DNA from: an uncultured Candidatus Saccharibacteria bacterium
GTDB taxonomy: Bacteria > Patescibacteriota > Doudnabacteria > UBA920
Length of the DNA: 51,732 bases
Assembly: GCA_964512925.1 (NCBI GenBank)
Contig: CAZEKH010000006.1
Coordinates: 1-51,732, forward strand
Reading direction: 5' to 3'
Shown here: piece by piece, positions 17,887 through 30,045 of the stretch
How the letters are laid out: each line of letters starts with the position of its first letter
How positions within the stretch are numbered: the stretch's first letter is position 1
Notes under the pieces: model-generated
What the model was told of the DNA's origin: nothing
Seen by the model: only the letters and a program-made list of their open reading frames with translations
Database searches by the model: none
Translations under genes and position numbers: made by a program

Positions 17887-20800
17887 ATGGAGTTTTTTAA
17901 CAAAATGCAAAATTCTTTAGCAAAGAAAATCTTTGCTGTAGGTGTTGCTGCTTCCACAGCTTTGATGGCTTTGGCTCCTTTTGCCGCCCGCGCAGCCGCG
18001 CACGGTGAAGGCACCAACATCAAATCTTCCGATGGCACCGTTTGGATGATCATCGGCGGACAGCGCAGACCCTACACATCCGCAGGCGCGTTCCTTTCCT
18101 ACGGCTTTAACTCATTTAGCCAGGTTGTAGACGCAAATTCGGACGATTTGTCCCTCGCTGCCGGAGCTTTTATCCCTCCGCAGGATGGTAAAATCATTTG
18201 TTCTGACAGAGGAGCTGACAAAGGCACTTGCTACCTTGTAACCCAGGGTATGAAAGCCGGATTCACCTCCGCTTCAGTCTTCACCGGTCTTGGTTTCTCT
18301 TTTTCCAGAACCCAGTCCGGCGATGTTTCCTGGATGCCTTCCACTGCCAACATTGACAACACCACCGACGCTCACCGCGTAGGAGTTTTGATCAACAACG
18401 GCGGCACCGTGCAATTGCGCGGCGTTGCTGGCAATATGGGTATCCCGGATTTAGCCACATTTAACTCATGGGGCTATTCCTTCGCTGATGTCGTTCCAGC
18501 CAATGCGTCTGACAAGGCCATTGTCCAGTCCGGCATTATGTGCACCCGCCAGGCAGGTCAGTTGAGCCCGGTTGCCTCTTGCGCAACCGCCCCGACCCCG
18601 ACTGGCGCTACCCCGACTCCTGGAGTTATCTCCGGTTCTGTCTCAGCCTCTTTGGCTTACGACACCCCGGCAGCCCAGACTGTCGCTGTAGCAGCTGCTA
18701 CCAACAAAACTGTTGTAACCTTAGCTAAATACACCTTCTCCGGTTCCGGAACTGTTACCCAGCTCCAGGTTAAGAGACTTGGCGTATCTTCAGACTCTGT
18801 TTTGTCTAACGTGTATCTCTTCAACGGCGATACCCGCTTGACTGACGGCGCTTCTGTTGGCGGCAACAGCCTTGTGACTTTCGCCAGCCCGTCTGGTCTC
18901 TTTACCGTCAACGGTACAATGACCATTTCCGTGGTTGCTGAAATAGCAGCTGGCACTTCTTCCGGCTCCACCGTCGGTTCCCAGTTGACTTCGTTCACTG
19001 TGGCTAACGGCAGCCCGGCTTCTGTTGCCATCTCTGGCAACTTGTTTACAGTTTCTCAGTCCTCTGACTTGGCTTACGCCACTTTCGGCACGGTAACCCC
19101 GTCCGGATCCAGCTTTGACCCGGCCAAGGACACTGAAGTTTTCCGCAGCAATGTTTCAGTCAACACCCGCGATATGACTCTTTCCAGATTCATCATCCGC
19201 AACATCGGCTCTGCCCAGCAGGCTGATATGAACAACTTCCGCTTGCTCGTTGACGGTACTCAGGTAGGACAGGTCCAAAGCCTGGACTCCAACGGCTATG
19301 CTTATTTCAGCTTCAGCCCGATTACCTTAAAGAGCGGCACCCGCGTGTTCAGAGTGTTGGCCGATGTCATCGGCGGTTCTTCCCGAAACTTCCAGTTCCA
19401 GATCAGGAACGTATCTGATGTCAACTTTGTTGACACTCAGTACAACACCACCATTTCTCCTTCTAACACCTTCCCAGTAGGCAGCGCTTCTTCAAACAGC
19501 ATTGCTTCCGGTACTTTGGTCATACAGAAGGCTTCTGACTCTCCGTCCGGCAACGTAACTGACAACTCCAGCGACGTTACACTCGCTAAGTACACTGTTA
19601 CCGCCTACGGCGAACCTATGAAGATTGAAACTTTGAAAGTCGGTGCCACTTCTTCAAATGCCAGTGTCGGTTCTTTGAGAAACGGCCGCATCTTGATCAA
19701 TGGCGTGCAGTACGGTTCTACTGCTACTCTTTCAAAGACCACCAACAACACCTACACCACTGGTGGCACTCAGTACACCTTGAACTACACTGTTATGCCT
19801 GGCACTCCGATAACTTTGGAGATCCACGCTGATATGTTTGACAACGACGGCACCAACAGCCTTGTTAACCTTGACACTGTCACTGCTTACTTGATGGCTG
19901 ATGGTACTTCCAATGTACAGAGATTGGTTTCTTTGGGTTATGTTGCTTACCCGTCTGTATCAGTTGCAGGAAGCTCCTTGACTGATGTTACAGGTAGCGT
20001 CACCCTTACCAAAAACACCAACTACGCTAACCAGACCACTCCGCTTCCAAGAACCAACTACAAGATCGGTTCTTACAACTTAGCTGGCTCAACTTCAGAA
20101 GATGTAACATTAAACAGCCTGGATTTGGGTACTACTGCTTCCAGCTCCTTGTTTAACTACACTCACCTGAACAATGTGAAAGCTATGATCGGCGGAAATA
20201 TGTTTGGCACAGTTAAGTCCACTCTCTCTAGCGGCACCTCTACCTTCTCCGGCTCTTACACTTTGCCGAAAGGTCAGACTGTTGCTATAGAGTTCTGGGC
20301 TGACTTGGCTACTCCGACTTCCGGAGCTGCCAGCGGTGAATATGTTATATCCAACACCTGTGTCAACGGAACTGCTGTTAACTCTTCTTCCAGCATTATC
20401 AAATGTCAATCAGGACAGACTGTAACCTACGGCTCTGGTGTCTTCACCATTGCCCAGGATCCGTCTACCCCGGTTGCCGCTATCGTAGCTGGTAACCAGA
20501 CCAGGACTGTTGCAGCCTTCAAGTACACCACTGCCAATGACTCTTACACTGTCAATGAAATTACATTGTCATTAGTTGGAGCCACCACTGTCAGCTCGGT
20601 TACTTTGAAAGACGGTTCAACTACTGTAGGTACCCCCCAGCCGGGCGGTTCTACTTCAGTTACATTCTCTAACCTTAACTGGGTTGTCCCGAACAACACC
20701 ACCAAAGTACTCAATGTCGAACTGGCCTTGGGTGACGTGGGAGTTGGAATGGGAACTTCCGGTGAAAATGTGCAAGTAACAGTAGCAACTGTTAAGAGCG

Positions 20801-21402
20801 CTCCTTCTTCATCCGGTGTACAAAGCACCAGTTCTCCAGGTGTAGCTGGAAATGTGACTTATGTTTATAAGTCCATTCCGACTGTTACCAATGTATCTTT
20901 GCCGACAACTCAATTGTCTGCTGGTACACAAACCTTATACAAGTTCTCGGTTAGCTCCGGAGGATCCGGTACTATTGGTTGGGCCAAATTTGGCTTTACC
21001 ATTGCTACCACCACCGGCGTAACTGTCACTGGTTTGCAGGTATGGGATGCTGATACAAATACCCAAATCTCGGGTACTGCCAGCAGCACTTACACTTCTA
21101 CCGGTATGGTTACCGAGTTCTGGCCGAACGTTGAACAGCAAGTTAGTGGAGCTAAGACTTATGTCTTAAAAGGAACTGTCTCTCTGAGCGGCACCGGTTA
21201 TCGTTCTATTTCAACGAACATAACCCAGCCGACCGGTCATGCTGTCCCTGTAGCCGCAACTACCGCTACTTCAACCAACGCTACTTTGGTTTGGTCTGAT
21301 CTTTCAGCCCAAAGCCACAGCTTCACCACTTCTGACTGGAACAACGACAACTTGGTTAAGAACCTGCCAACAGATTCTCAGACCTTGTCCGTCACTAACT
21401 AG
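17887..21402 (+). CDS. Large secreted T/S/G/V-rich surface (S-layer-like) protein
   Basis: Signal peptide ..LAPFAARAAA/HGEG. Two N-terminal repeats of about 90 aa (G.V..I..G.RRP..S...F.S.G..F..VV.A). The remainder is predicted beta-rich, with no enzymatic motifs. It is bounded by a strong terminator. Confidence 0.7.
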   Translation: MEFFNKMQNSLAKKIFAVGVAASTALMALAPFAARAAAHGEGTNIKSSDGTVWMIIGGQRRPYTSAGAFLSYGFNSFSQVVDANSDDLSLAAGAFIPPQDGKIICSDRGADKGTCYLVTQGMKAGFTSASVFTGLGFSFSRTQSGDVSWMPSTANIDNTTDAHRVGVLINNGGTVQLRGVAGNMGIPDLATFNSWGYSFADVVPANASDKAIVQSGIMCTRQAGQLSPVASCATAPTPTGATPTPGVISGSVSASLAYDTPAAQTVAVAAATNKTVVTLAKYTFSGSGTVTQLQVKRLGVSSDSVLSNVYLFNGDTRLTDGASVGGNSLVTFASPSGLFTVNGTMTISVVAEIAAGTSSGSTVGSQLTSFTVANGSPASVAISGNLFTVSQSSDLAYATFGTVTPSGSSFDPAKDTEVFRSNVSVNTRDMTLSRFIIRNIGSAQQADMNNFRLLVDGTQVGQVQSLDSNGYAYFSFSPITLKSGTRVFRVLADVIGGSSRNFQFQIRNVSDVNFVDTQYNTTISPSNTFPVGSASSNSIASGTLVIQKASDSPSGNVTDNSSDVTLAKYTVTAYGEPMKIETLKVGATSSNASVGSLRNGRILINGVQYGSTATLSKTTNNTYTTGGTQYTLNYTVMPGTPITLEIHADMFDNDGTNSLVNLDTVTAYLMADGTSNVQRLVSLGYVAYPSVSVAGSSLTDVTGSVTLTKNTNYANQTTPLPRTNYKIGSYNLAGSTSEDVTLNSLDLGTTASSSLFNYTHLNNVKAMIGGNMFGTVKSTLSSGTSTFSGSYTLPKGQTVAIEFWADLATPTSGAASGEYVISNTCVNGTAVNSSSSIIKCQSGQTVTYGSGVFTIAQDPSTPVAAIVAGNQTRTVAAFKYTTANDSYTVNEITLSLVGATTVSSVTLKDGSTTVGTPQPGGSTSVTFSNLNWVVPNNTTKVLNVELALGDVGVGMGTSGENVQVTVATVKSAPSSSGVQSTSSPGVAGNVTYVYKSIPTVTNVSLPTTQLSAGTQTLYKFSVSSGGSGTIGWAKFGFTIATTTGVTVTGLQVWDADTNTQISGTASSTYTSTGMVTEFWPNVEQQVSGAKTYVLKGTVSLSGTGYRSISTNITQPTGHAVPVAATTATSTNATLVWSDLSAQSHSFTTSDWNNDNLVKNLPTDSQTLSVTN

Positions 21403-21560: not shown

Positions 21561-24500
21561 ATGTTTACAAAAAATTCTAGTTTTTTTGGCAGATGGTATA
21601 AATTGTCAGCTTTGGCGCTGGCTTTTTTTATTTCGCTTCAGCCGTTGGGGGTTGTGTTTGCGGAAGATGTTATTGATTTAACCCAAGCTGAAAATGTTTC
21701 TGAGCAAACATTGAATCAGGAAAATGAAATTATAAATGAAGTTGCTCAAAATACAGACCAAAGTATTCCGCAGGATATAATACAAAATACACAAACTGAA
21801 AAAACCTCCGTAAATGAGCTTTCTTCAAGTCCGAACTTAGAACCGACTGCAATTCCAGAAATGAATACATCGAACCTTTCCGGTCCGACAAATGTTCCAG
21901 AGCCTGTTACAGGGTATGTTGATAGATTCAGCAAGTTACCTAAAGTTGATGACAGCTCCGGCGCTTTAATACAAAATATAGAAATTCAAAGTCCTTTGGG
22001 CAGAAACGGCCTGCAGCCAAATTTGTCTATCGCATATAACTCTCAAGACAAAACCGACCAGGACATTTTTGGGTATGGATGGAAAACAAATATACCCTAT
22101 ATTGAAAGATTGTCTAAAAAAGGTGTTGATCATTTATTTTCGGAAAATTTTTTTGTTTCTTCTTTGGATGGTGAGTTAGCAACAACTGCATTGAGTTCAG
22201 TATTTGTTGCGCGATCGGAAAACGGCAATTTCAACAAGTATGTTTTTTCCAGCAATCAGTGGCTTATGTCGGCAAAAAACGGTTGGCAATATAAATTTGG
22301 GTATGCAACATCAACTCAGCTGTCGGACCCTCAAAATCCGGATAATATTTCTAGATGGATGCTGGAAGAAATCCGTGATATGAATGGTAATTATATAAAA
22401 TACGAGTATTTTAAAGATTCTGGACAAATATATCCTTCAAGGATTGTTTATACAGGAAGTGGGCAGCAGGACGGTATTTTTGAAATTTCTTTTTTAAGAG
22501 AATCCAGGACAGACGTTGTTCCTAGTTATAGAACGGGTTTTTTAGTCCAGTCCAAATATAGGATAAATGAAATTCAAGTCAAAACAAACGGATCCTGGGT
22601 TAGAAAGTACTCATTTTCTTATATTTCAGGAGACAACGGGTGGAGATCCTTGCTTTCAGCTGTGATTGAATATGGAAAAGACGAACTAGGTAATGTCATA
22701 CAGCTCCCGCCTACCGAATTTAAATATCAGAAAGGCACATTTTCTTGGACTTTAAACCAACAAAATTATACCGCTTCTTTTAGCTTGGCTGCTGACCAAG
22801 CTTACCAGTATGAGATTCAGGATTTAAACGGCGACACCAGACCCGATGTATTTCACGGCATTAGTGGTGTATTTTTTACTAACCACACAACTTGGTTTTA
22901 CAATCCGGCGCAAAAGAATTGGCTTGAAGCTCCGAGCTCAACAATTCCTATAGATTTTAAAGTTGGGGAAGATAGAAATAATTTTATTACAAATTGGGAT
23001 AGGGGAGTTAGGGCGGCTGATTTAAATGGGGATTTATATCCGGACATTTTGAAAGCTGAAGATGGGGCAAATGGCGGTTTTACTTCTTATATAAATAACA
23101 AAGGTTTAGGATGGATGCAAAATAATAATTTTTCGGCAAGTATCGGGTTGGGCAAGAGCAAAGACTCCACTGAAGGGAGTTTTCAGGAGTATGGGGGATA
23201 TGTTTTGGATCTAAATGGCGATGGGTTGGCGGATATTATTAGACAAAAGACAGGGCATTATCTGGGCGCGCAATTAAATAACGGGTATGGATATAATTCA
23301 GCTACCAGTACTTGGAATACGCCGGTAGGCTTGAGATATAATAACGATGGTTCGGTTTTTTCCGATGTAAATAACGACGGACTTCCTGATTTGCAGAGTA
23401 CGTATTACACAAATTCTGGTAACGATTATCACTCTGATACATATTTAAATACCGGATCAGGAAGCTGGGTTGCAAACGAAGCAGTATTTAGCGACCCGGC
23501 CCACCGTCTTATAAATAATTCTGGTTACTCTGAAACTGAAGGGATGAGGTTTCTGGATTTAAATGGGGACGGTTTGTTAGATGCGGCAAGAGATTGTTGT
23601 GGCGGGGGGCAAGAACTTTATTTTAATAAAGGCTCTGGTTGGTATCAAAAACCTTATAGTTGGGTTTTGCCAGCAGGAACTGTAAGCCCTGGCAAGGATA
23701 CCGATATAAATGGTGACGGCCTTGTTGATTTTCTGTATGAATTCAACAAAGGAAGCGCTCAATATTATGCTTGGATATATTTTCACGATGGGGTTGTCCC
23801 CGATTTGCTTTCCACAGTTATTTACCCGGAAGGTGGAAGAACTTCTGTTAGTTACAAAAAATCCAGTGAATTAGCTGATAGCAGTGGAAATTTATTAAAC
23901 CCAAATTTGCCTTTACAGATTGATTTGGTAACAGCAATCCAGAATTTTGACGGCGTAAGCACTTCAAGTCCCGAGTCTTATATTTATAAGGGTGGTTTGC
24001 ATTATTATAATAACCCGTTCGATAAAAAATTTGCTGGATTTTCGGAGATAGATAAGACTGATGCGGAGGGGAATGTTACTAAAACTTTCTATCACCAGGG
24101 GGACGGCACGGATGTAAGCCATGGGGAGTTTGAGGATAATTTTTGGAAAATTGGAAAGCCATATAGGGTTGAGCAGTATGACAACAGTGGCAACCTGTAC
24201 AAAAAAACCATTAACAAATGGGAAAGCGCGACTTCTTCCCAAAATTCCCTGGCCGGGTTTGTAAAACTCGGGCAGACTCTACAGCAGGATTATGACGGTA
24301 CTTCAAACCATAAAGACAAAGCTGAAAGCTATACTTACAACAACTCTACCGGCGACATTACGCAAAAAGTAGAGTATGGGGAAGTTACTGGAAGTGACAA
24401 CGGGACTTTTTCAGACTCAGGCACTGACGATTTTACCACCACTTTTTCCTATGCCACAAGCAGTACCAGTAGCGCGCTTAGTTTGCTTTCAGGTTCATTG

Positions 24501-27500
24501 ACTACTGACCACAACTCAAGCAAAGTCAAAGAAGTTAGAAATTATTATGACAGCCTGCCTTTGGGCAGCGCGGACAAAGGCAACTTGACCAAGCAGGAAA
24601 GCTGGAAGTCTGGTTCAAGCTATGTCAGTAGCCAGAAAACTTACAACTCTTACGGTTTGGTTACTTCACAAACAGACCCAAGAGGAAAAGTTACGAGCTT
24701 TAGCTATGACAGCTACAACCTCTATCCTACTACAGTTACCAACCCTTTAAGCCAGGTTACGCTTTTGGAATATGATTATTCTTCCGGCCAGGTGGCGACT
24801 TCCACAGACCCCAACGGCAATATTTTTGTAAATGTTTATGACGGTTTGGACAGACTTGTCTCGCAAAAGCATCCTGATCCGGCAAATCCTTCGGTCTTAA
24901 ACCTCAAATCCTCAATTTCATACACCGACACCCAAGGAGCTTTCAGCGTAAAACAGACTAAATATTTGTCTTCAAGTTTGGCGGTTGATTCCTATACTTA
25001 TTTGGACGGACTTTCTAGACCAAAACAAATACGGGAGATGGCTGAGAGCGGGAATTTTGCAGTAAAAGATTTTAGTTACAACAGCCGGGGACTTTTAAGC
25101 AGGGAAACTTTGCCCTACTTTTCTTCAGGTAGCGCTACTACGACCGCGACTTCCACGGGAAGTTTGTATTTAAATTACAGTTATGATGCTTTAGGCAGAT
25201 TGGCGGTTTCTGGCAGTAGTATTGCCACTACAACTAATTCGTATGTTAACTGGAAGCAGACAACCATTAACCCGAACGGGAAAAATAAAGATTTATACAG
25301 CGACGCATTTGGCAATTTAAGCAGGGTGGATGAGCATAACTCAACCAGCACTTACTCAACTTACTATACCTATGATTACAATAAAAACCTGACCAAGATA
25401 ACCGACGCTTTGGGCAATGTGAGAAATTTTGCATATGACGGCCTTTCAAGGCGCGTATCTGCTGAAGATTTGCATCAAAGCTCAGACGCGACTTTTGGCT
25501 CATATGCTTTTGTTTATGACGACTCGGGCAACCTAACCCAAAAAACCGATCCCAAGTCTCAGGTGACAAACTATTCATATGACGATCTAAACAGAGTTTT
25601 AACAGAGGACTTTACCGGTCAGGCTGGTACAGAAGTTCAATATTCCTATGACAGTTGCGCAAACGGCAAAGGACATATGTGTAACGCTTCTTCCACCGGC
25701 TACAGCCTCACAAACTCATACAATGCCTTAGGACAGTTAACTTCGGAAACAAAACTTATTTCTTCTAACAGTTTTTCAACTAGCTATTCTTACGACCGGC
25801 AGGGAAATGTTATAACCATACAGAATCCTGACAACTCTCAGGTAAAATATATTTACGGCTCAGGCGGGAAAATAGATCAGGTGCAGAGAAAAGAAAGCGC
25901 TGACAGCAGTTTCATAAATGTAGTTACAAATATGGACTACGCGCCTTCGGGCCAGCAGACTTTGGTCGCCTATGCCAATGGTGTTTCTACGGTAAATAAC
26001 TATGACCCTGCTAAGCTCTATAGGCTAACCAAAAAAACTACCACTTTACCCACGACTGTCAAAGCTCAGGACATTTCTTACTTTTACGATGCTGTTGGAA
26101 ATATAACTTCAATTCTCAACGCTTCGGCGAGCAATGCCAGTTCAACCGTATCTTATGTCTATGACGACTTAAACAGGCTGACTTCAGCTTCAGCTACCGG
26201 CACTCCTTTTGGTATATCGGGCTTTAGTCAAACATATTCATACGATGCTTTAGGCAATATTATAAACAAGTCTGATTTAGGGGCTTATAGCTATTTGGGC
26301 AATTTAAATTCAAATTTCGCAAACCCACACGCGGCAACCGGGATATCCGGCACCAGTAACTACAGTTTGGCTTATGACCAAAACGGCAACTTGCTTTCGC
26401 TTTCTTCTGTTGCCAGTTCAACCGGTTGGACTCTTTCGGGCGGTACTTGGAATAGGAGAAAACAAATTACTATAGACCATACCAAAGTTTCCGGATCCAG
26501 TAGCCTTACGAATTTTCCACTTCTATTTTCTACCACAGACGCAGAACTAAAAACACTGGCCAATGGCGGTTATGTCGGAAAATCGGATGGTACGGATATT
26601 GTTTTTACTTCCTCAGACGGCCAAACTAAACTTGACTATGAACTGGAAAAATATTCTTCCACTACCGGAGAAACTTTGGCTTGGGTTAAAATCCCGACTT
26701 TATCTACCAGCACTGACACGACTTTGTATGTATATTATGGAAATTCCTCAGCCTCCGACCAGCAAAACAAAACTGGAGTTTGGGACTCAAACTTCAAAGC
26801 CGTGTACCATTTGCCCAACGGCTCAAGCCTTTCCGCTTCAGACTCCACTTCCAACGCGAACAATGGGTCTGTTACTGGGGCAACTGCAGGCACAGGTCAG
26901 ATAGACGGTGCGGCTAGTTTTTCAGGCTCAAACCAATACATTTCCAACTCTTCAACTTTGCCTTCCGGTACATTTACTTACGAGTCTTGGGTTAAGCCTT
27001 CGGGTACAACTGGCTATCGCCCGATGTTTGGGTCTTCAGGGTACGGAATAGAGTTTAGGATAAATAGTTCAAACAACCAAATTCAGCTTTTAGACCAAGG
27101 TGTAACTGGCATTTTAACATCCACAGGTTCAGCCTCGGCAAATACTTGGACTCATATTGCTCTAACCAGAGACGGAGCAAGTAATGCGGTTAAAATATAT
27201 ATCAACGGTCAGTTAGATTCTTCTACTACAAACGCCCAAAATCCGGCAGGTTCCAACCGACTTGGAGCCGCAACTTCAGTGGGAGAATATTTCGCAGGGA
27301 GTTTGGACGAGATGAGAGCTTCTAATTCAGTTAGAAGCGCAGACTGGATAAAGACCGAATACAACAACCAGTCTTCAGCTTCCACTTTTTACAGTTTGGG
27401 AGCCGGGGATTCAGGCTCAACCGGCGGAGGATCCGGGGGCGGTAGCGGGGGAGGGAATCCTCCTTCTGACTGGTATCCGCCAGCTGGCGGACCAGGAGGC

Positions 27501-29717
27501 GTTTGGACAAACAGAAAGTCTGTTACAGTAGACAAAACCAAAGTTTCCAACTCCGTTTCCAATTTTCCAGTTTTAGTTTCAGTAACTGACGCAAATTTAA
27601 AATCCATTGCAAACGGGGGACTAGTAGGCAAGAGCGACGGCAGTGATATTTTGTTTACTTCTTCGGACGGACTAACCAAACTAAGTCACGAGATAGAAAA
27701 GTATTCCGCCTCAACCGGCGAGCTTTTGGCGTGGGTAAAGGTGACGAGTTTAACTTCTTCCGTAAACACGGGGCTCTATATGTACTTTGGAAATGCTTCT
27801 GCTTCTGACCAGCAAAACAAAACCGGAGTTTGGGATTCAAACTTCAAAGCTGTGTACCATTTACCGAACGGTTCAACTTTATCTGCTTTAGATTCCACTT
27901 CCAACTCTAACAATGGCAGCATAACCGGAGCCACAGCCGGAACAGGGCAGATAGACGGCGCAGGTAGTTTCTCGGGCTCAAGCCAATATATCTCCAGCTC
28001 TTCAACGTTGCCTTCCGGTACATTTACTTACGAGTCTTGGGTCAAGCCTTCGGGTACAACTGGGTATAGAGCTATCTTTGGCGGCTCGTCTTACGCCGCA
28101 GAACTTCGGGTAAACGCCAGCACAAACCAAATTCAGCTTTTAGACCAAGGTATAACCGGTATATTTACTTCCACAGGTTCAGCCTCGGCAAATACTTGGA
28201 CTCACATAGCTTTAACCAGAGACGGCTCAAACAATGCCTACAAACTTTACATTAACGGTCAGCTTGATACTTCCACCACAAACTCCCAAAATCCTCCTGG
28301 TTCAAACCGTCTTGGCGGAGCTATCAGTGTAGGGGAATATTTTGCTGGAAGTTTGGACGAGATGAGAGCTTCTAACTCAGTTAGAAATGCAGACTGGATA
28401 ACCACACAGTACAACAACCAATCTAACCCAAACACTTTTATGTCCTTTGGAGGCTTAGAAAGTTTGGGCAGCGGATCTTCATCTTCTTCCGGTCTTTTAA
28501 ACTCAAACTATACTTGGGACTACAACAACCGTATGCTTAGTGCTGTCATCCCAGTACAAACAGGAATTTTAGCTACTTCCACCAGTAACTATCTTTACGA
28601 CCCTTTTGGACAAAGGATAAAAATGTCTGTTGCAACTGGTACTACTGTAACTACTTACTATCCAACTAAATCCTACAACATTAACGGAAGCATACCAACC
28701 AAACACATCTTTGCAGGGGATATGCTACTTGCTACCTTAACCGGCACCGGCACATCTACCACAGTCAGCTATATCCATCCCGACCACTTAGGCGGAAGTA
28801 ATGTAGTTACAAACAATTCCGGCTCTGTGGTAGAGCTGACCGACTACTATCCATATGGCTCTTCAAGGCTTGATGAACGCTCTGGTTCATTTAATGAACA
28901 GCGTAAGTTCACGGGGCATGAGTATGACGCGAGTACGGGACTTAATTACATGAATGCCCGATATCAACATCCCACAATTGGCAGGTTTGTAAGTCAGGAT
29001 CCACCGTTCTGGGACTTCTCAAGACTAGGGATTCAATTGGTAGACCCCCAAAGCTGGAATAGTTACGCCTATGCAAGAAATAACCCATTGAAGTATAATG
29101 ATCCTGACGGACAATTCTTGGATACTGTTATAGATGCTGGGTTTACAGCATGGGATGGAAGTAGTTTTATACAACACACAGGTAACTGGTTGGGAGATCA
29201 AGCTTTGATAGGAATCGGGAAGCTAACGGGTAATACCAGAATCGAAAACAATGGCAGAGCCGGCTTAGTCCAGTCAGGGACAGCACTGAAGAGTGCATCT
29301 GTTGATTTAGGAATTGATGTTGGGGCGACTTTAATCCCGGGTGTTCCAGCCTTTGTGGGTAGAATAGACGATGTGGCGAAGCTCGCTAACAAGGCCGACA
29401 ATGTTGCCAAAACTTTCAATGCCGTTGAACAGCAGCAAAAAATGTTGAAAGGTATTGAAAATGAAAAAGCAATCAATACTATAAAAGATGTATTCAGAAA
29501 AAGTGATGAAGTGCCTGGTGGTACAATGGGTGCCATTAGGAATGAAATACTAACCGGGAATTCCACCAAGGGAATCTTCCACGGTAATAAAGCTGAAAAT
29601 ACGATTAACAGAATACAAAATGTCTTTAAGTCAGAAAAATTGAATAGCGTTGAAACCAGTCGTTTACAAAGTATTAGTAATAGTCTTAAGTCATTAGTTA
29701 AAAATTTAAATCGCTAA
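21561..29717 (+). CDS. Giant TcB/TcC-like polymorphic toxin: SpvB domain, FG-GAP propeller, YD/RHS shell, 2x(DUF2341+LamG) insert, RHS core and a variable C-terminal toxin domain
   Basis: Signal/TM at the N-terminus. SpvB-type LQPNLSIAYNSQ..GYGW. FG-GAP/VCBS repeats (DLNGDGLADI, DVNNDGLPDL, DLNGDGLLDA, DINGDGLVDF). Many YD repeats (Y.YD..G....). RHS core YMNARYQHPTIGRFVSQDP...NSYAYARNNPLKYNDPDGQF. A unique tail of about 200 aa follows. Confidence 0.9.
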   Translation: MFTKNSSFFGRWYKLSALALAFFISLQPLGVVFAEDVIDLTQAENVSEQTLNQENEIINEVAQNTDQSIPQDIIQNTQTEKTSVNELSSSPNLEPTAIPEMNTSNLSGPTNVPEPVTGYVDRFSKLPKVDDSSGALIQNIEIQSPLGRNGLQPNLSIAYNSQDKTDQDIFGYGWKTNIPYIERLSKKGVDHLFSENFFVSSLDGELATTALSSVFVARSENGNFNKYVFSSNQWLMSAKNGWQYKFGYATSTQLSDPQNPDNISRWMLEEIRDMNGNYIKYEYFKDSGQIYPSRIVYTGSGQQDGIFEISFLRESRTDVVPSYRTGFLVQSKYRINEIQVKTNGSWVRKYSFSYISGDNGWRSLLSAVIEYGKDELGNVIQLPPTEFKYQKGTFSWTLNQQNYTASFSLAADQAYQYEIQDLNGDTRPDVFHGISGVFFTNHTTWFYNPAQKNWLEAPSSTIPIDFKVGEDRNNFITNWDRGVRAADLNGDLYPDILKAEDGANGGFTSYINNKGLGWMQNNNFSASIGLGKSKDSTEGSFQEYGGYVLDLNGDGLADIIRQKTGHYLGAQLNNGYGYNSATSTWNTPVGLRYNNDGSVFSDVNNDGLPDLQSTYYTNSGNDYHSDTYLNTGSGSWVANEAVFSDPAHRLINNSGYSETEGMRFLDLNGDGLLDAARDCCGGGQELYFNKGSGWYQKPYSWVLPAGTVSPGKDTDINGDGLVDFLYEFNKGSAQYYAWIYFHDGVVPDLLSTVIYPEGGRTSVSYKKSSELADSSGNLLNPNLPLQIDLVTAIQNFDGVSTSSPESYIYKGGLHYYNNPFDKKFAGFSEIDKTDAEGNVTKTFYHQGDGTDVSHGEFEDNFWKIGKPYRVEQYDNSGNLYKKTINKWESATSSQNSLAGFVKLGQTLQQDYDGTSNHKDKAESYTYNNSTGDITQKVEYGEVTGSDNGTFSDSGTDDFTTTFSYATSSTSSALSLLSGSLTTDHNSSKVKEVRNYYDSLPLGSADKGNLTKQESWKSGSSYVSSQKTYNSYGLVTSQTDPRGKVTSFSYDSYNLYPTTVTNPLSQVTLLEYDYSSGQVATSTDPNGNIFVNVYDGLDRLVSQKHPDPANPSVLNLKSSISYTDTQGAFSVKQTKYLSSSLAVDSYTYLDGLSRPKQIREMAESGNFAVKDFSYNSRGLLSRETLPYFSSGSATTTATSTGSLYLNYSYDALGRLAVSGSSIATTTNSYVNWKQTTINPNGKNKDLYSDAFGNLSRVDEHNSTSTYSTYYTYDYNKNLTKITDALGNVRNFAYDGLSRRVSAEDLHQSSDATFGSYAFVYDDSGNLTQKTDPKSQVTNYSYDDLNRVLTEDFTGQAGTEVQYSYDSCANGKGHMCNASSTGYSLTNSYNALGQLTSETKLISSNSFSTSYSYDRQGNVITIQNPDNSQVKYIYGSGGKIDQVQRKESADSSFINVVTNMDYAPSGQQTLVAYANGVSTVNNYDPAKLYRLTKKTTTLPTTVKAQDISYFYDAVGNITSILNASASNASSTVSYVYDDLNRLTSASATGTPFGISGFSQTYSYDALGNIINKSDLGAYSYLGNLNSNFANPHAATGISGTSNYSLAYDQNGNLLSLSSVASSTGWTLSGGTWNRRKQITIDHTKVSGSSSLTNFPLLFSTTDAELKTLANGGYVGKSDGTDIVFTSSDGQTKLDYELEKYSSTTGETLAWVKIPTLSTSTDTTLYVYYGNSSASDQQNKTGVWDSNFKAVYHLPNGSSLSASDSTSNANNGSVTGATAGTGQIDGAASFSGSNQYISNSSTLPSGTFTYESWVKPSGTTGYRPMFGSSGYGIEFRINSSNNQIQLLDQGVTGILTSTGSASANTWTHIALTRDGASNAVKIYINGQLDSSTTNAQNPAGSNRLGAATSVGEYFAGSLDEMRASNSVRSADWIKTEYNNQSSASTFYSLGAGDSGSTGGGSGGGSGGGNPPSDWYPPAGGPGGVWTNRKSVTVDKTKVSNSVSNFPVLVSVTDANLKSIANGGLVGKSDGSDILFTSSDGLTKLSHEIEKYSASTGELLAWVKVTSLTSSVNTGLYMYFGNASASDQQNKTGVWDSNFKAVYHLPNGSTLSALDSTSNSNNGSITGATAGTGQIDGAGSFSGSSQYISSSSTLPSGTFTYESWVKPSGTTGYRAIFGGSSYAAELRVNASTNQIQLLDQGITGIFTSTGSASANTWTHIALTRDGSNNAYKLYINGQLDTSTTNSQNPPGSNRLGGAISVGEYFAGSLDEMRASNSVRNADWITTQYNNQSNPNTFMSFGGLESLGSGSSSSSGLLNSNYTWDYNNRMLSAVIPVQTGILATSTSNYLYDPFGQRIKMSVATGTTVTTYYPTKSYNINGSIPTKHIFAGDMLLATLTGTGTSTTVSYIHPDHLGGSNVVTNNSGSVVELTDYYPYGSSRLDERSGSFNEQRKFTGHEYDASTGLNYMNARYQHPTIGRFVSQDPPFWDFSRLGIQLVDPQSWNSYAYARNNPLKYNDPDGQFLDTVIDAGFTAWDGSSFIQHTGNWLGDQALIGIGKLTGNTRIENNGRAGLVQSGTALKSASVDLGIDVGATLIPGVPAFVGRIDDVAKLANKADNVAKTFNAVEQQQKMLKGIENEKAINTIKDVFRKSDEVPGGTMGAIRNEILTGNSTKGIFHGNKAENTINRIQNVFKSEKLNSVETSRLQSISNSLKSLVKNLNR
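26448..28446 (+). repeat. Tandem duplication (period 1056 nt / 352 aa) of a DUF2341 + LamG-like module inside the RHS gene
   Basis: Copy 1 is about 26448-27390 and copy 2 about 27504-28446, separated by a Gly-rich linker (GGGSGGGSGGGNPP). Long near-identical DNA runs occur, for example caaaacaaaac[t/c]ggagtttggga[c/t]tcaaacttcaaagc. Confidence 0.9.
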
Positions 29718-29721
29718 TTAT

Positions 29722-30045
29722 ATGAAATTGTATACTGTAGAAATTACTTTCTCAGATTTTACCTTCGGCATAGAGCAGTATGAATCTAATTCTGTAGAAG
29801 AGGTTTTCCAGCTATTTTTTGAAAAGGCTGAATGTTTCGCTAATTATGATAGAAGTAAAATTCTTGAAATTATGAAAAGACGTCTCAAAGAAGGAAGTGC
29901 ATTGATACATGTCGCCAATAATATACGAGGCGTTTGGCTGATAAACGCAGGTGCGGAGCTTCAAGAAATTACTCACGATGATTTACCAGCTATCTACGGT
30001 GGTAAGGTGGTACAAACTGATCCCCATGCTCCAAGGAAATCCTAG
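29722..30045 (+). CDS. Putative cognate immunity protein of the RHS C-terminal toxin
   Basis: A 107-aa ORF starts 4 nt after the RHS stop on the same strand. The call is by position only; no family is recognised. Confidence 0.5.
   Translation: MKLYTVEITFSDFTFGIEQYESNSVEEVFQLFFEKAECFANYDRSKILEIMKRRLKEGSALIHVANNIRGVWLINAGAELQEITHDDLPAIYGGKVVQTDPHAPRKS

Follow-up and report, generated by a model that had tools for sequence, protein, structure and literature searches.

Here we describe P0001, a rearrangement hotspot (RHS) protein encoded in the window, a 51,732-nucleotide stretch (contig CAZEKH010000006.1 of assembly GCA_964512925.1) from an uncultured Candidatus Saccharibacteria bacterium that is assigned to the Doudnabacteria in GTDB. 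P0001 is read from a single unbroken open reading frame (ORF) of 8.2 kb on the forward strand (21561..29717; 2718 amino acids, aa), as are all features of the gene given below. We found that its shell, built of YD repeats, carries two tandem modules just ahead of the RHS core, each composed of a DUF2341 domain and a laminin G-like (LamG) domain, and comparison with relatives indicates that these modules are a true insertion into a single shell loop. We consider it moderately probable that the modules are displayed outside the closed cocoon, bind the surface of target cells, and thereby replace the targeting that is provided by TcA in toxin complex (Tc) toxins.

The initial annotation had placed two 352-aa units of DUF2341 plus LamG/concanavalin-like character, joined by a GGGSGGGSGGG linker, at 26448-28446 (aa 1630-2296), and this description was borne out. 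The units begin at aa 1630 (WNRRK) and aa 1982 (WTNRK), giving a period of 352 aa, and the motif GSLDEMRASNSVR occurs in both, at aa 1913 and aa 2263. The Pfam families PF13385 (Laminin_G_3; 148.5 bits, threshold 27.6) and PF10102 (DUF2341; 83 bits, threshold 23.4) each matched in two stretches, which separates the units from RHS repeats, and a six-frame search of the whole genome recovered both DUF2341 copies, at 59.1 and 49.9 bits. Module 1 (26424..27407, aa 1622-1949), supported by Pfam, AlphaFold2, and Foldseek, consists of DUF2341 at aa ~1626-1752 (best Pfam stretch 1676-1741) and a LamG jelly roll at aa ~1753-1945 (best Laminin_G_3 stretch 1789-1931). A Gly/Ser/Pro linker (27408..27494, aa 1950-1978), which contains GGGSGGGSGGG at aa 1955-1965, leads to module 2 (27495..28460, aa 1979-2300), a second DUF2341 and LamG copy delimited by a phmmer domain map. 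The chain then returns to the shell through a Ser/Gly-rich linker (28461..28508, aa 2301-2316), which reads LESLGSGSSSSSGLLN.

That the modules interrupt the shell just ahead of the RHS core, as had also been proposed, is supported by orthologs that differ in module number. In the ortholog P0123, which has no insert and reads YDNNGNLTATKVGTSTLASYTWDYNNRL, 13 aa separate the two YD repeats that flank the site; in P0001, 706 aa lie between YDQNGN and YTWDYNNRM. The modules of P0001 thus occupy the place of an inter-repeat loop of about 13 residues, and this loop lies about 25 residues ahead of the stretch alignable to the RHS core. A single DUF2341-LamG module was found at the same site in the relatives P0125, P0126, P0129, P0134, P0142, P0156, and P0181, and two tandem modules were found in P0127 and P0135 as well as in P0001, and P0110 combines one module here with a sister module that lies in a different loop (near aa 1349, P0001 numbering). 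The shell flanks of the insert are conserved across relatives with zero, one, or two modules, and the site is occupied in at least 10 independent relatives. We also performed an exhaustive junction-spanning search with aa 1540-1760 as query, which returned 20,362 matches at E ≤ 0.001, mostly multi-module DUF2341 proteins; among the 150 matches listed, only P0110 clearly spans the junction from shell to DUF2341.

Structure prediction, one of the checks proposed with the initial annotation, gave a picture consistent with such an insertion. An AlphaFold2 model of aa 1296-2495 (1200 aa), built with 41 aligned sequences, had a mean predicted local distance difference test (pLDDT) score of 77.7 and a predicted template modelling (pTM) score of 0.51. 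The shell hairpins on both sides of the insert were modelled at pLDDT 85-95, with aa 1316-1618 forming beta-hairpins mostly in this range, and both modules were mostly above 70. Confidence fell below 50 at all three linkers, namely, the entry linker (aa 1619-1626), the inter-module linker (aa 1950-1979), and the return linker (aa 2303-2310), which were among the longest such stretches in the model. When module 1 was modelled alone, it reached pLDDT 87.4 and pTM 0.89, and the module is thus predicted with confidence to be a self-contained folding unit. Foldseek matched the partial-shell model to Rhs cocoons, with alignments that covered one side of the insert only (~400 columns, root-mean-square deviation (rmsd) 6-7 Å to TcC) or everything at a meaningless ~40 Å.

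A PDB sequence search with the module returned nothing significant; its predicted fold, in contrast to its sequence, was readily matched. It is a beta-sandwich for which Foldseek returned concanavalin A (ConA)-like domains at template modelling (TM) scores of up to 0.74-0.78, including domain 4 of the arabinanase AbnA in a ligand-complex structure (TM 0.74 on target, rmsd 3.0 Å). Further matches were lectin-like subdomains of toxin receptor-binding domains, the trans-sialidase lectin domain, and pentraxin. Among predicted viral structures, many phage and giant-virus proteins of LamG type matched the module, some of them annotated as virion or baseplate parts, and two viral proteins matched the whole two-domain module with TM 0.72-0.75 on query. 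These viral and lectin fold matches fit a surface-binding role, and they are no proof of it.

The DNA copies of the two modules had been described as highly similar and recently duplicated, which we could not uphold. The two modules share 254/345 residues (74%) at the protein level, and a codon alignment of 322 codons gave 73.6% nucleotide identity and 76% amino acid identity, with a nonsynonymous divergence (dN) of 0.19 and a synonymous divergence (dS) of 1.08; at the DNA level, repeat blocks spaced 1050-1056 nt apart show 69-82% identity. Because dS is ~1.1 and synonymous sites are near saturation, the DNA copies are not highly similar, and the duplication is lineage-specific but not recent. 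Both copies are under purifying selection, because dN/dS between them is ~0.17. In module trees, modules 1 and 2 of P0001 are sisters (support 100/100), and the module pairs of P0110 and P0127 are likewise sisters within each protein, which argues that duplication, or homogenization, occurred separately in each lineage. In P0110 (2547 aa) the sister modules (100/100) occupy two different shell loops ~600 aa apart, which points to an intragenic duplication with re-insertion of the module at a second permissive loop. The backbone of the trees is a polytomy, in which one acquisition of in-shell modules among relatives is not distinguished from repeated acquisition.

The arrangement in P0001 draws its interest mainly from a pattern that runs through a whole family. 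By using aa 1-1620 of P0001 as query, that is, with the modules excluded, we recovered a large SpvB/FG-GAP/RHS family at 39-57% identity. Named relatives come mostly from Patescibacteria (Paceibacterota, Parcubacteria, Staskawiczbacteria, Ryanbacteria, Doudnabacteria, and Falkowbacteria), in agreement with the GTDB genomes. Some records carry other labels: Candidatus Methanoperedens (an archaeon), Bryobacteraceae/Terriglobia, and Alphaproteobacteria (P0174 with L042, NZ_FZMP01000168.1; P0142; L019, L028, and L041), and the family members in these records could reflect horizontal transfer or binning contamination.

We carried out an insert census on a local MAFFT alignment of 121 family members, in which an insert was defined as at least 60 aa upstream of the payload. 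At least one insert was present in 72 of these sampled relatives (~60%). In P0001 numbering, inserts were concentrated at aa ~1497 (37 inserts) and aa ~1621, the site of the P0001 modules (24 inserts), followed by aa ~2399 (9 inserts) and aa ~2340 (8 inserts), with rarer sites at aa 249, 508, 575, 888, 1139, 1189, 1264, 1349, 1380, 1399, 1448, 1548, and 2443. LamG, with or without DUF2341, accounted for 41 inserts at more than 10 sites; the other types were two beta-rich types without domain assignment, Gly_rich_2 with an immunoglobulin (Ig)-like domain, and a Sortilin/BNR-like propeller. When mapped onto the model, sites 1349, 1448, 1497, 1548, and 1621 all fall within ~2 residues of the same predicted loop class, which follows the second strand of the YD hairpin and is not the tight DxxGN turn. 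We infer that this loop is a permissive display site that has been filled with different binding-type domains in different lineages. Both flanks were located at 68 GTDB loci; of these, 46 had 24 residues or fewer between the flanks and none had a DUF2341 module. Nine of 30 genomes that share the family or order of this bacterium encode an ortholog, and the closest ortholog (47% identity) lacks an insert here. Therefore, the DUF2341-LamG tandem represents a rare variant of a common theme. Within the same census, a beta-rich domain of ~210 aa without a Pfam match occurs as a pair, at aa ~1621 and in the core at aa ~2399, in P0122, P0133, P0145, P0147, P0166, P0183, P0190, and P0195, and the two copies in P0122 are very similar to each other.

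The rest of P0001 has the sequence features of a secreted RHS cocoon toxin with a layout like that of a TcB-TcC fusion. A probable Sec signal peptide (21561..21665, aa 1-35), read by eye rather than by a predictor, has a basic N-region, a hydrophobic core, and the cleavage-type motif VFA (LQPLGVVFA, followed by EDV). It is followed by an SpvB/TcB-type N-terminal domain (21957..22760, aa ~133-400; Pfam SpvB PF03534, E 1.4e-15, best stretch aa 133-209), in which many columns are near-invariant in an alignment of 74 relatives, and by an FG-GAP beta-propeller region (22761..23750, aa ~401-730; Pfam FG-GAP_3, three stretches, E 2.3e-7), the D.NGDG repeats of which are kept in the family consensus. 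The RHS/YD-repeat shell up to the insertion point (23751..26423, aa 731-1621) matched Pfam RHS_repeat in five stretches (E 8.6e-35), and its PDB sequence matches were RhsA, Tse5, and Tre23. Beyond the modules, the last YD repeats and the RHS core (28509..29114, aa 2317-2518) contain the aspartyl-protease motifs GRFVSQDP and NNPLKYNDPDGQ. In a PDB sequence search, aa 2403-2518 aligned to the TccC3 core of solved Tc structures, and the tail of TIGR03696 matched as well. The sequence has both a PxxxxDPxG-type cleavage motif and the conserved Asp pair that characterize RHS cores, and at least 90% of the 74 aligned family members keep D2480, D2514, and G2517. The domain TcdB_toxin_midN (PF12256), present in many relatives, was not detected in P0001, either in the Pfam search at E ≤ 0.01 or in the precomputed domain list.

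The genome (1.08 Mb in 10 contigs, scored 100% complete) encodes P0001 as its only RHS protein. The TcA families PF18276 (TcA_TcB_BD) and PF03538 (VRP1) had no match in the genome, and the control genomes were silent too, which weakens the search; the only other ORF longer than 2000 aa (3993 aa) has no Tc domain. As neither a TcA marker or candidate nor TcdB_toxin_midN was detected, P0001 is best called Tc-like rather than a Tc toxin. The 3993-aa ORF, the largest of the genome (C2:7717-19695, reverse strand; L086), has only a weak Pfam match to HTH_17 and lies between two DUF2341-LamG genes.

The DUF2341-LamG module also occurs singly in three further secreted or surface proteins of this genome. 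Module 1 matched one of these, a 792-aa protein (C2:1919-4294; 51.8% identity, 315 bits), better than anything else except its twin; in-shell modules of relatives scored slightly lower (49%, 282 bits). A 986-aa protein (C2:31217-34174, reverse strand; loci L085/L088) combines a type IV pilin N-methylation motif (PF07963, 26.2 bits) with CarboxypepD_reg, DUF2341, and LamG domains. Its domain content suggests a candidate pilus-associated adhesin, and hence an adhesin-type context for the module.

The initial annotation had regarded the arrangement as unseen in characterized RHS/Tc proteins; the cryo-electron microscopy structure of the mosquito protein SGS1 is a precedent (PMC9935623). In SGS1, a carbohydrate-binding module, a lectin carbohydrate-recognition domain, a second propeller, and a wedge are inserted in the Rhs/YD sequence, decorate the exterior of the shell, and are regarded as putative receptor domains (PMC9935623). 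Receptor-type domains, propellers among them, are described there on the shells of Tc TcB and teneurins as well (PMC9935623). Like P0001, SGS1 is an Rhs/YD cocoon with a Tc-like propeller and domains inserted in the YD sequence, and its structure (8fjp) was matched by the shell part of the P0001 model in Foldseek. Unlike P0001, it is eukaryotic, its inserts are Ig-like beta-sandwiches placed mid-shell without tandem paralogs, whereas those of P0001 are DUF2341-LamG modules beside the core, and its enclosed cargo is a set of helices rather than a polymorphic toxin with an immunity gene. In the literature that combines Rhs with Patescibacteria, LamG, or shell inserts, we found no description of lectin-like shell inserts in bacterial RHS proteins, of this family, or of its insertion sites, and SGS1 was the only structural precedent found.

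Among bacterial systems, the Tc BC cocoons (TcdB2-TccC3 and YenB-YenC; PDB 4o9x, 6h6e, and 4igl) share with P0001 the SpvB-type N-terminus, the FG-GAP propeller in the shell, the YD cocoon, the RHS core with two catalytic Asp residues, and a hypervariable C-terminal payload. P0001 differs from them in having a probable signal peptide and a putative immunity gene, in the lack of any TcA marker found in its genome, and in the undetected TcdB_toxin_midN. Receptor binding in Tc toxins is done by TcA, and to our knowledge, solved Tc BC shells have no lectin-like inserts. Natural single-gene B-C fusions have been mentioned in a large Tc survey, from which they were excluded (PMC7861908). [quoted passage not shown] Unlike P0001 with its probable Sec signal, they are delivered by the T6SS via PAAR/VgrG-binding N-termini and have no SpvB domain or propeller; we know of no lectin inserts in the matched T6SS Rhs structures. 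Teneurins (PDB 6fb3 and 6fay) resemble P0001 in that domains attached to a YD shell (the NHL propeller and others) bind partners from outside, but they are eukaryotic membrane adhesion proteins that release no toxin and have different decorating domains. The module itself is shared, at 35-52% identity, with giant surface and type IV pilin-like proteins (MJ1470-type), including the three proteins of this genome. In those proteins, modules are strung along fibrous or pilin-like chains or stand N-terminal to an RHS shell; in P0001, they are nested in a shell loop. DUF2341-bearing giant proteins of Patescibacteria have been put forward as candidate adhesion or host-interaction proteins (PMC11809585).

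These observations can be combined into a model of how the modules might work. The shell would close round the base of the loop, and the modules would hang outside on their Gly/Ser linkers; we place them outside because of the single-loop topology, the flexible linkers, and the size of the folded insert, which at ~76 kDa is probably too large for the cavity. In solved Tc BC cocoons, the cavity holds one unfolded cargo of an estimated 20-35 kDa. Once outside, the modules would bind a surface glycan or protein of the target, most likely a bacterium that lives beside this small-genome organism or serves as its host, and hold the cocoon on the target envelope, thus supplying the targeting that TcA gives in Tc toxins. 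The tandem copy might raise avidity or add a second specificity. Several points weigh against this model. A route by which the payload would enter the target cell is not evident without TcA, and the absence of TcA itself rests mainly on the lack of a candidate large ORF, given the silent controls of the family search. The model of aa 1296-2495 covers part of the shell at its low pTM, the jelly rolls matched by the module are of a generic ConA-like kind, and we know of no ligand for DUF2341 or for this LamG subfamily. The family is known from sequences alone, and the sequences would look no different if the modules bound the producer's own envelope.

The last point leads to the main rival of target binding, which we judge unlikely: the modules may bind S-layer or other envelope glycans of the producer and keep the cocoon on its surface for contact-dependent delivery, like the RHS toxins of WapA type, which are associated with the cell wall. 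Lectin-like domains can serve such self-attachment, and fold matches do not tell self from foreign ligands. P0001 has a signal peptide and no other visible anchor, either membrane or sortase, and a very large Ser/Thr-rich secreted, surface-layer-like protein is encoded directly upstream. However, the same module occurs on a type IV pilin-like protein of this genome that has its own anchor and presumably uses the module to bind something foreign, and insert types vary strongly among close relatives, as would be expected of changing targets more than of a conserved envelope of the producer.

Two further explanations appear much less probable. Catalysis by the inserts, in which the ConA-like domains would cleave glycans and open a polysaccharide layer of the target, is suggested by the description of PF13385 as 'Concanavalin A-like lectin/glucanases superfamily' and by glycoside-hydrolase-associated proteins among the Foldseek matches. 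We consider it very unlikely, as the best matches are non-catalytic (AbnA domain 4, the trans-sialidase lectin domain, Hcn subdomains, and pentraxin) and no glycoside hydrolase or lyase family was matched in Pfam or NCBIfam. The least probable explanation, to which we give hardly any weight, is that the modules break the cocoon and leave the gene as a non-functional remnant, or that they are an artefact of assembly. The insert is indeed very large (~700 aa) and close to the core, and only part of the shell is covered by the model. Against this idea, the 8.2-kb frame is intact with conserved catalytic Asp motifs, dN/dS between the copies is low, the flanks are modelled with high confidence, and the same site is filled in the independent relatives described above. 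The assembly artefact, in particular, was rejected: the copies are 26% diverged in DNA, which excludes a collapsed or duplicated assembly, and the reading frame is unbroken.

Display of target-binding modules can also be placed in a broader scheme, which we offer only tentatively because we think it possible rather than probable. In cocoons of BC type that lack TcA, mostly from named Patescibacteria, a defined set of inter-repeat shell loops would serve as exchangeable display sites for binding domains recruited from the organism's own adhesin repertoire. In line with this, the 792-aa surface protein that is closest to the P0001 modules after their twin is encoded in the same genome, as is the pilin-like protein with another copy. 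The toxin and the attachment apparatus would then share one ligand on the host surface, and the number and position of modules would be reshuffled by intragenic duplication.

RHS/Tc cocoons are usually viewed as passive containers, with the aiming done by a separate device, for example TcA, the T6SS, or an anchor in the cell wall. The cocoons of this family appear to bear their own aiming or anchoring parts, of many domain types and at recurrent loops. If these domains do bind targets, they may help to explain how abundant TcA-less BC-type proteins find their targets in uncultured, host-dependent bacteria with small genomes. The modules would then be concrete proteins with which to seek hosts or ligands of these organisms, and the principle seen in SGS1 would be extended back to bacteria. 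DUF2341, a widespread domain of unknown function, gains a testable role. If recruitment from the adhesin repertoire also proves true, RHS toxins would possess a built-in targeting system that is independent of TcA.

At the C-terminus, the payload comprises 200 aa (29115..29714, aa 2519-2718), with its start after Q2518 inferred from the usual RHS cleavage position. It had no significant match in Pfam, NCBIfam, or the PDB, and among candidates of similar total length in a collection of 5.8 billion proteins, only two homologs were found (53-55% identity), both of which belong to the same RHS family and have LamG inserts. A 107-aa ORF (29722..30045, forward strand) starts 4 nt past the stop codon of P0001 and had no family match in Pfam or NCBIfam. 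In polymorphic toxin loci, a toxin gene followed by its immunity gene is the typical order, and by gene order only, this ORF is a candidate immunity protein.

Upstream of P0001, the gene at 17887-21402 encodes a 1171-aa secreted protein that is rich in Ser, Thr, and Gly, without a family match in Pfam or NCBIfam, and may belong to a surface layer. Most of this gene falls in a 2-kb bin that reaches 52% G+C, compared with ~40-44% around it. In a relative genome (G002, C2:15769-19873), three ORFs of ~440 aa that match only the RHS core (query aa ~2306-2527) lie near a full-length ortholog, and they look like an array of orphan core-plus-toxin cassettes.

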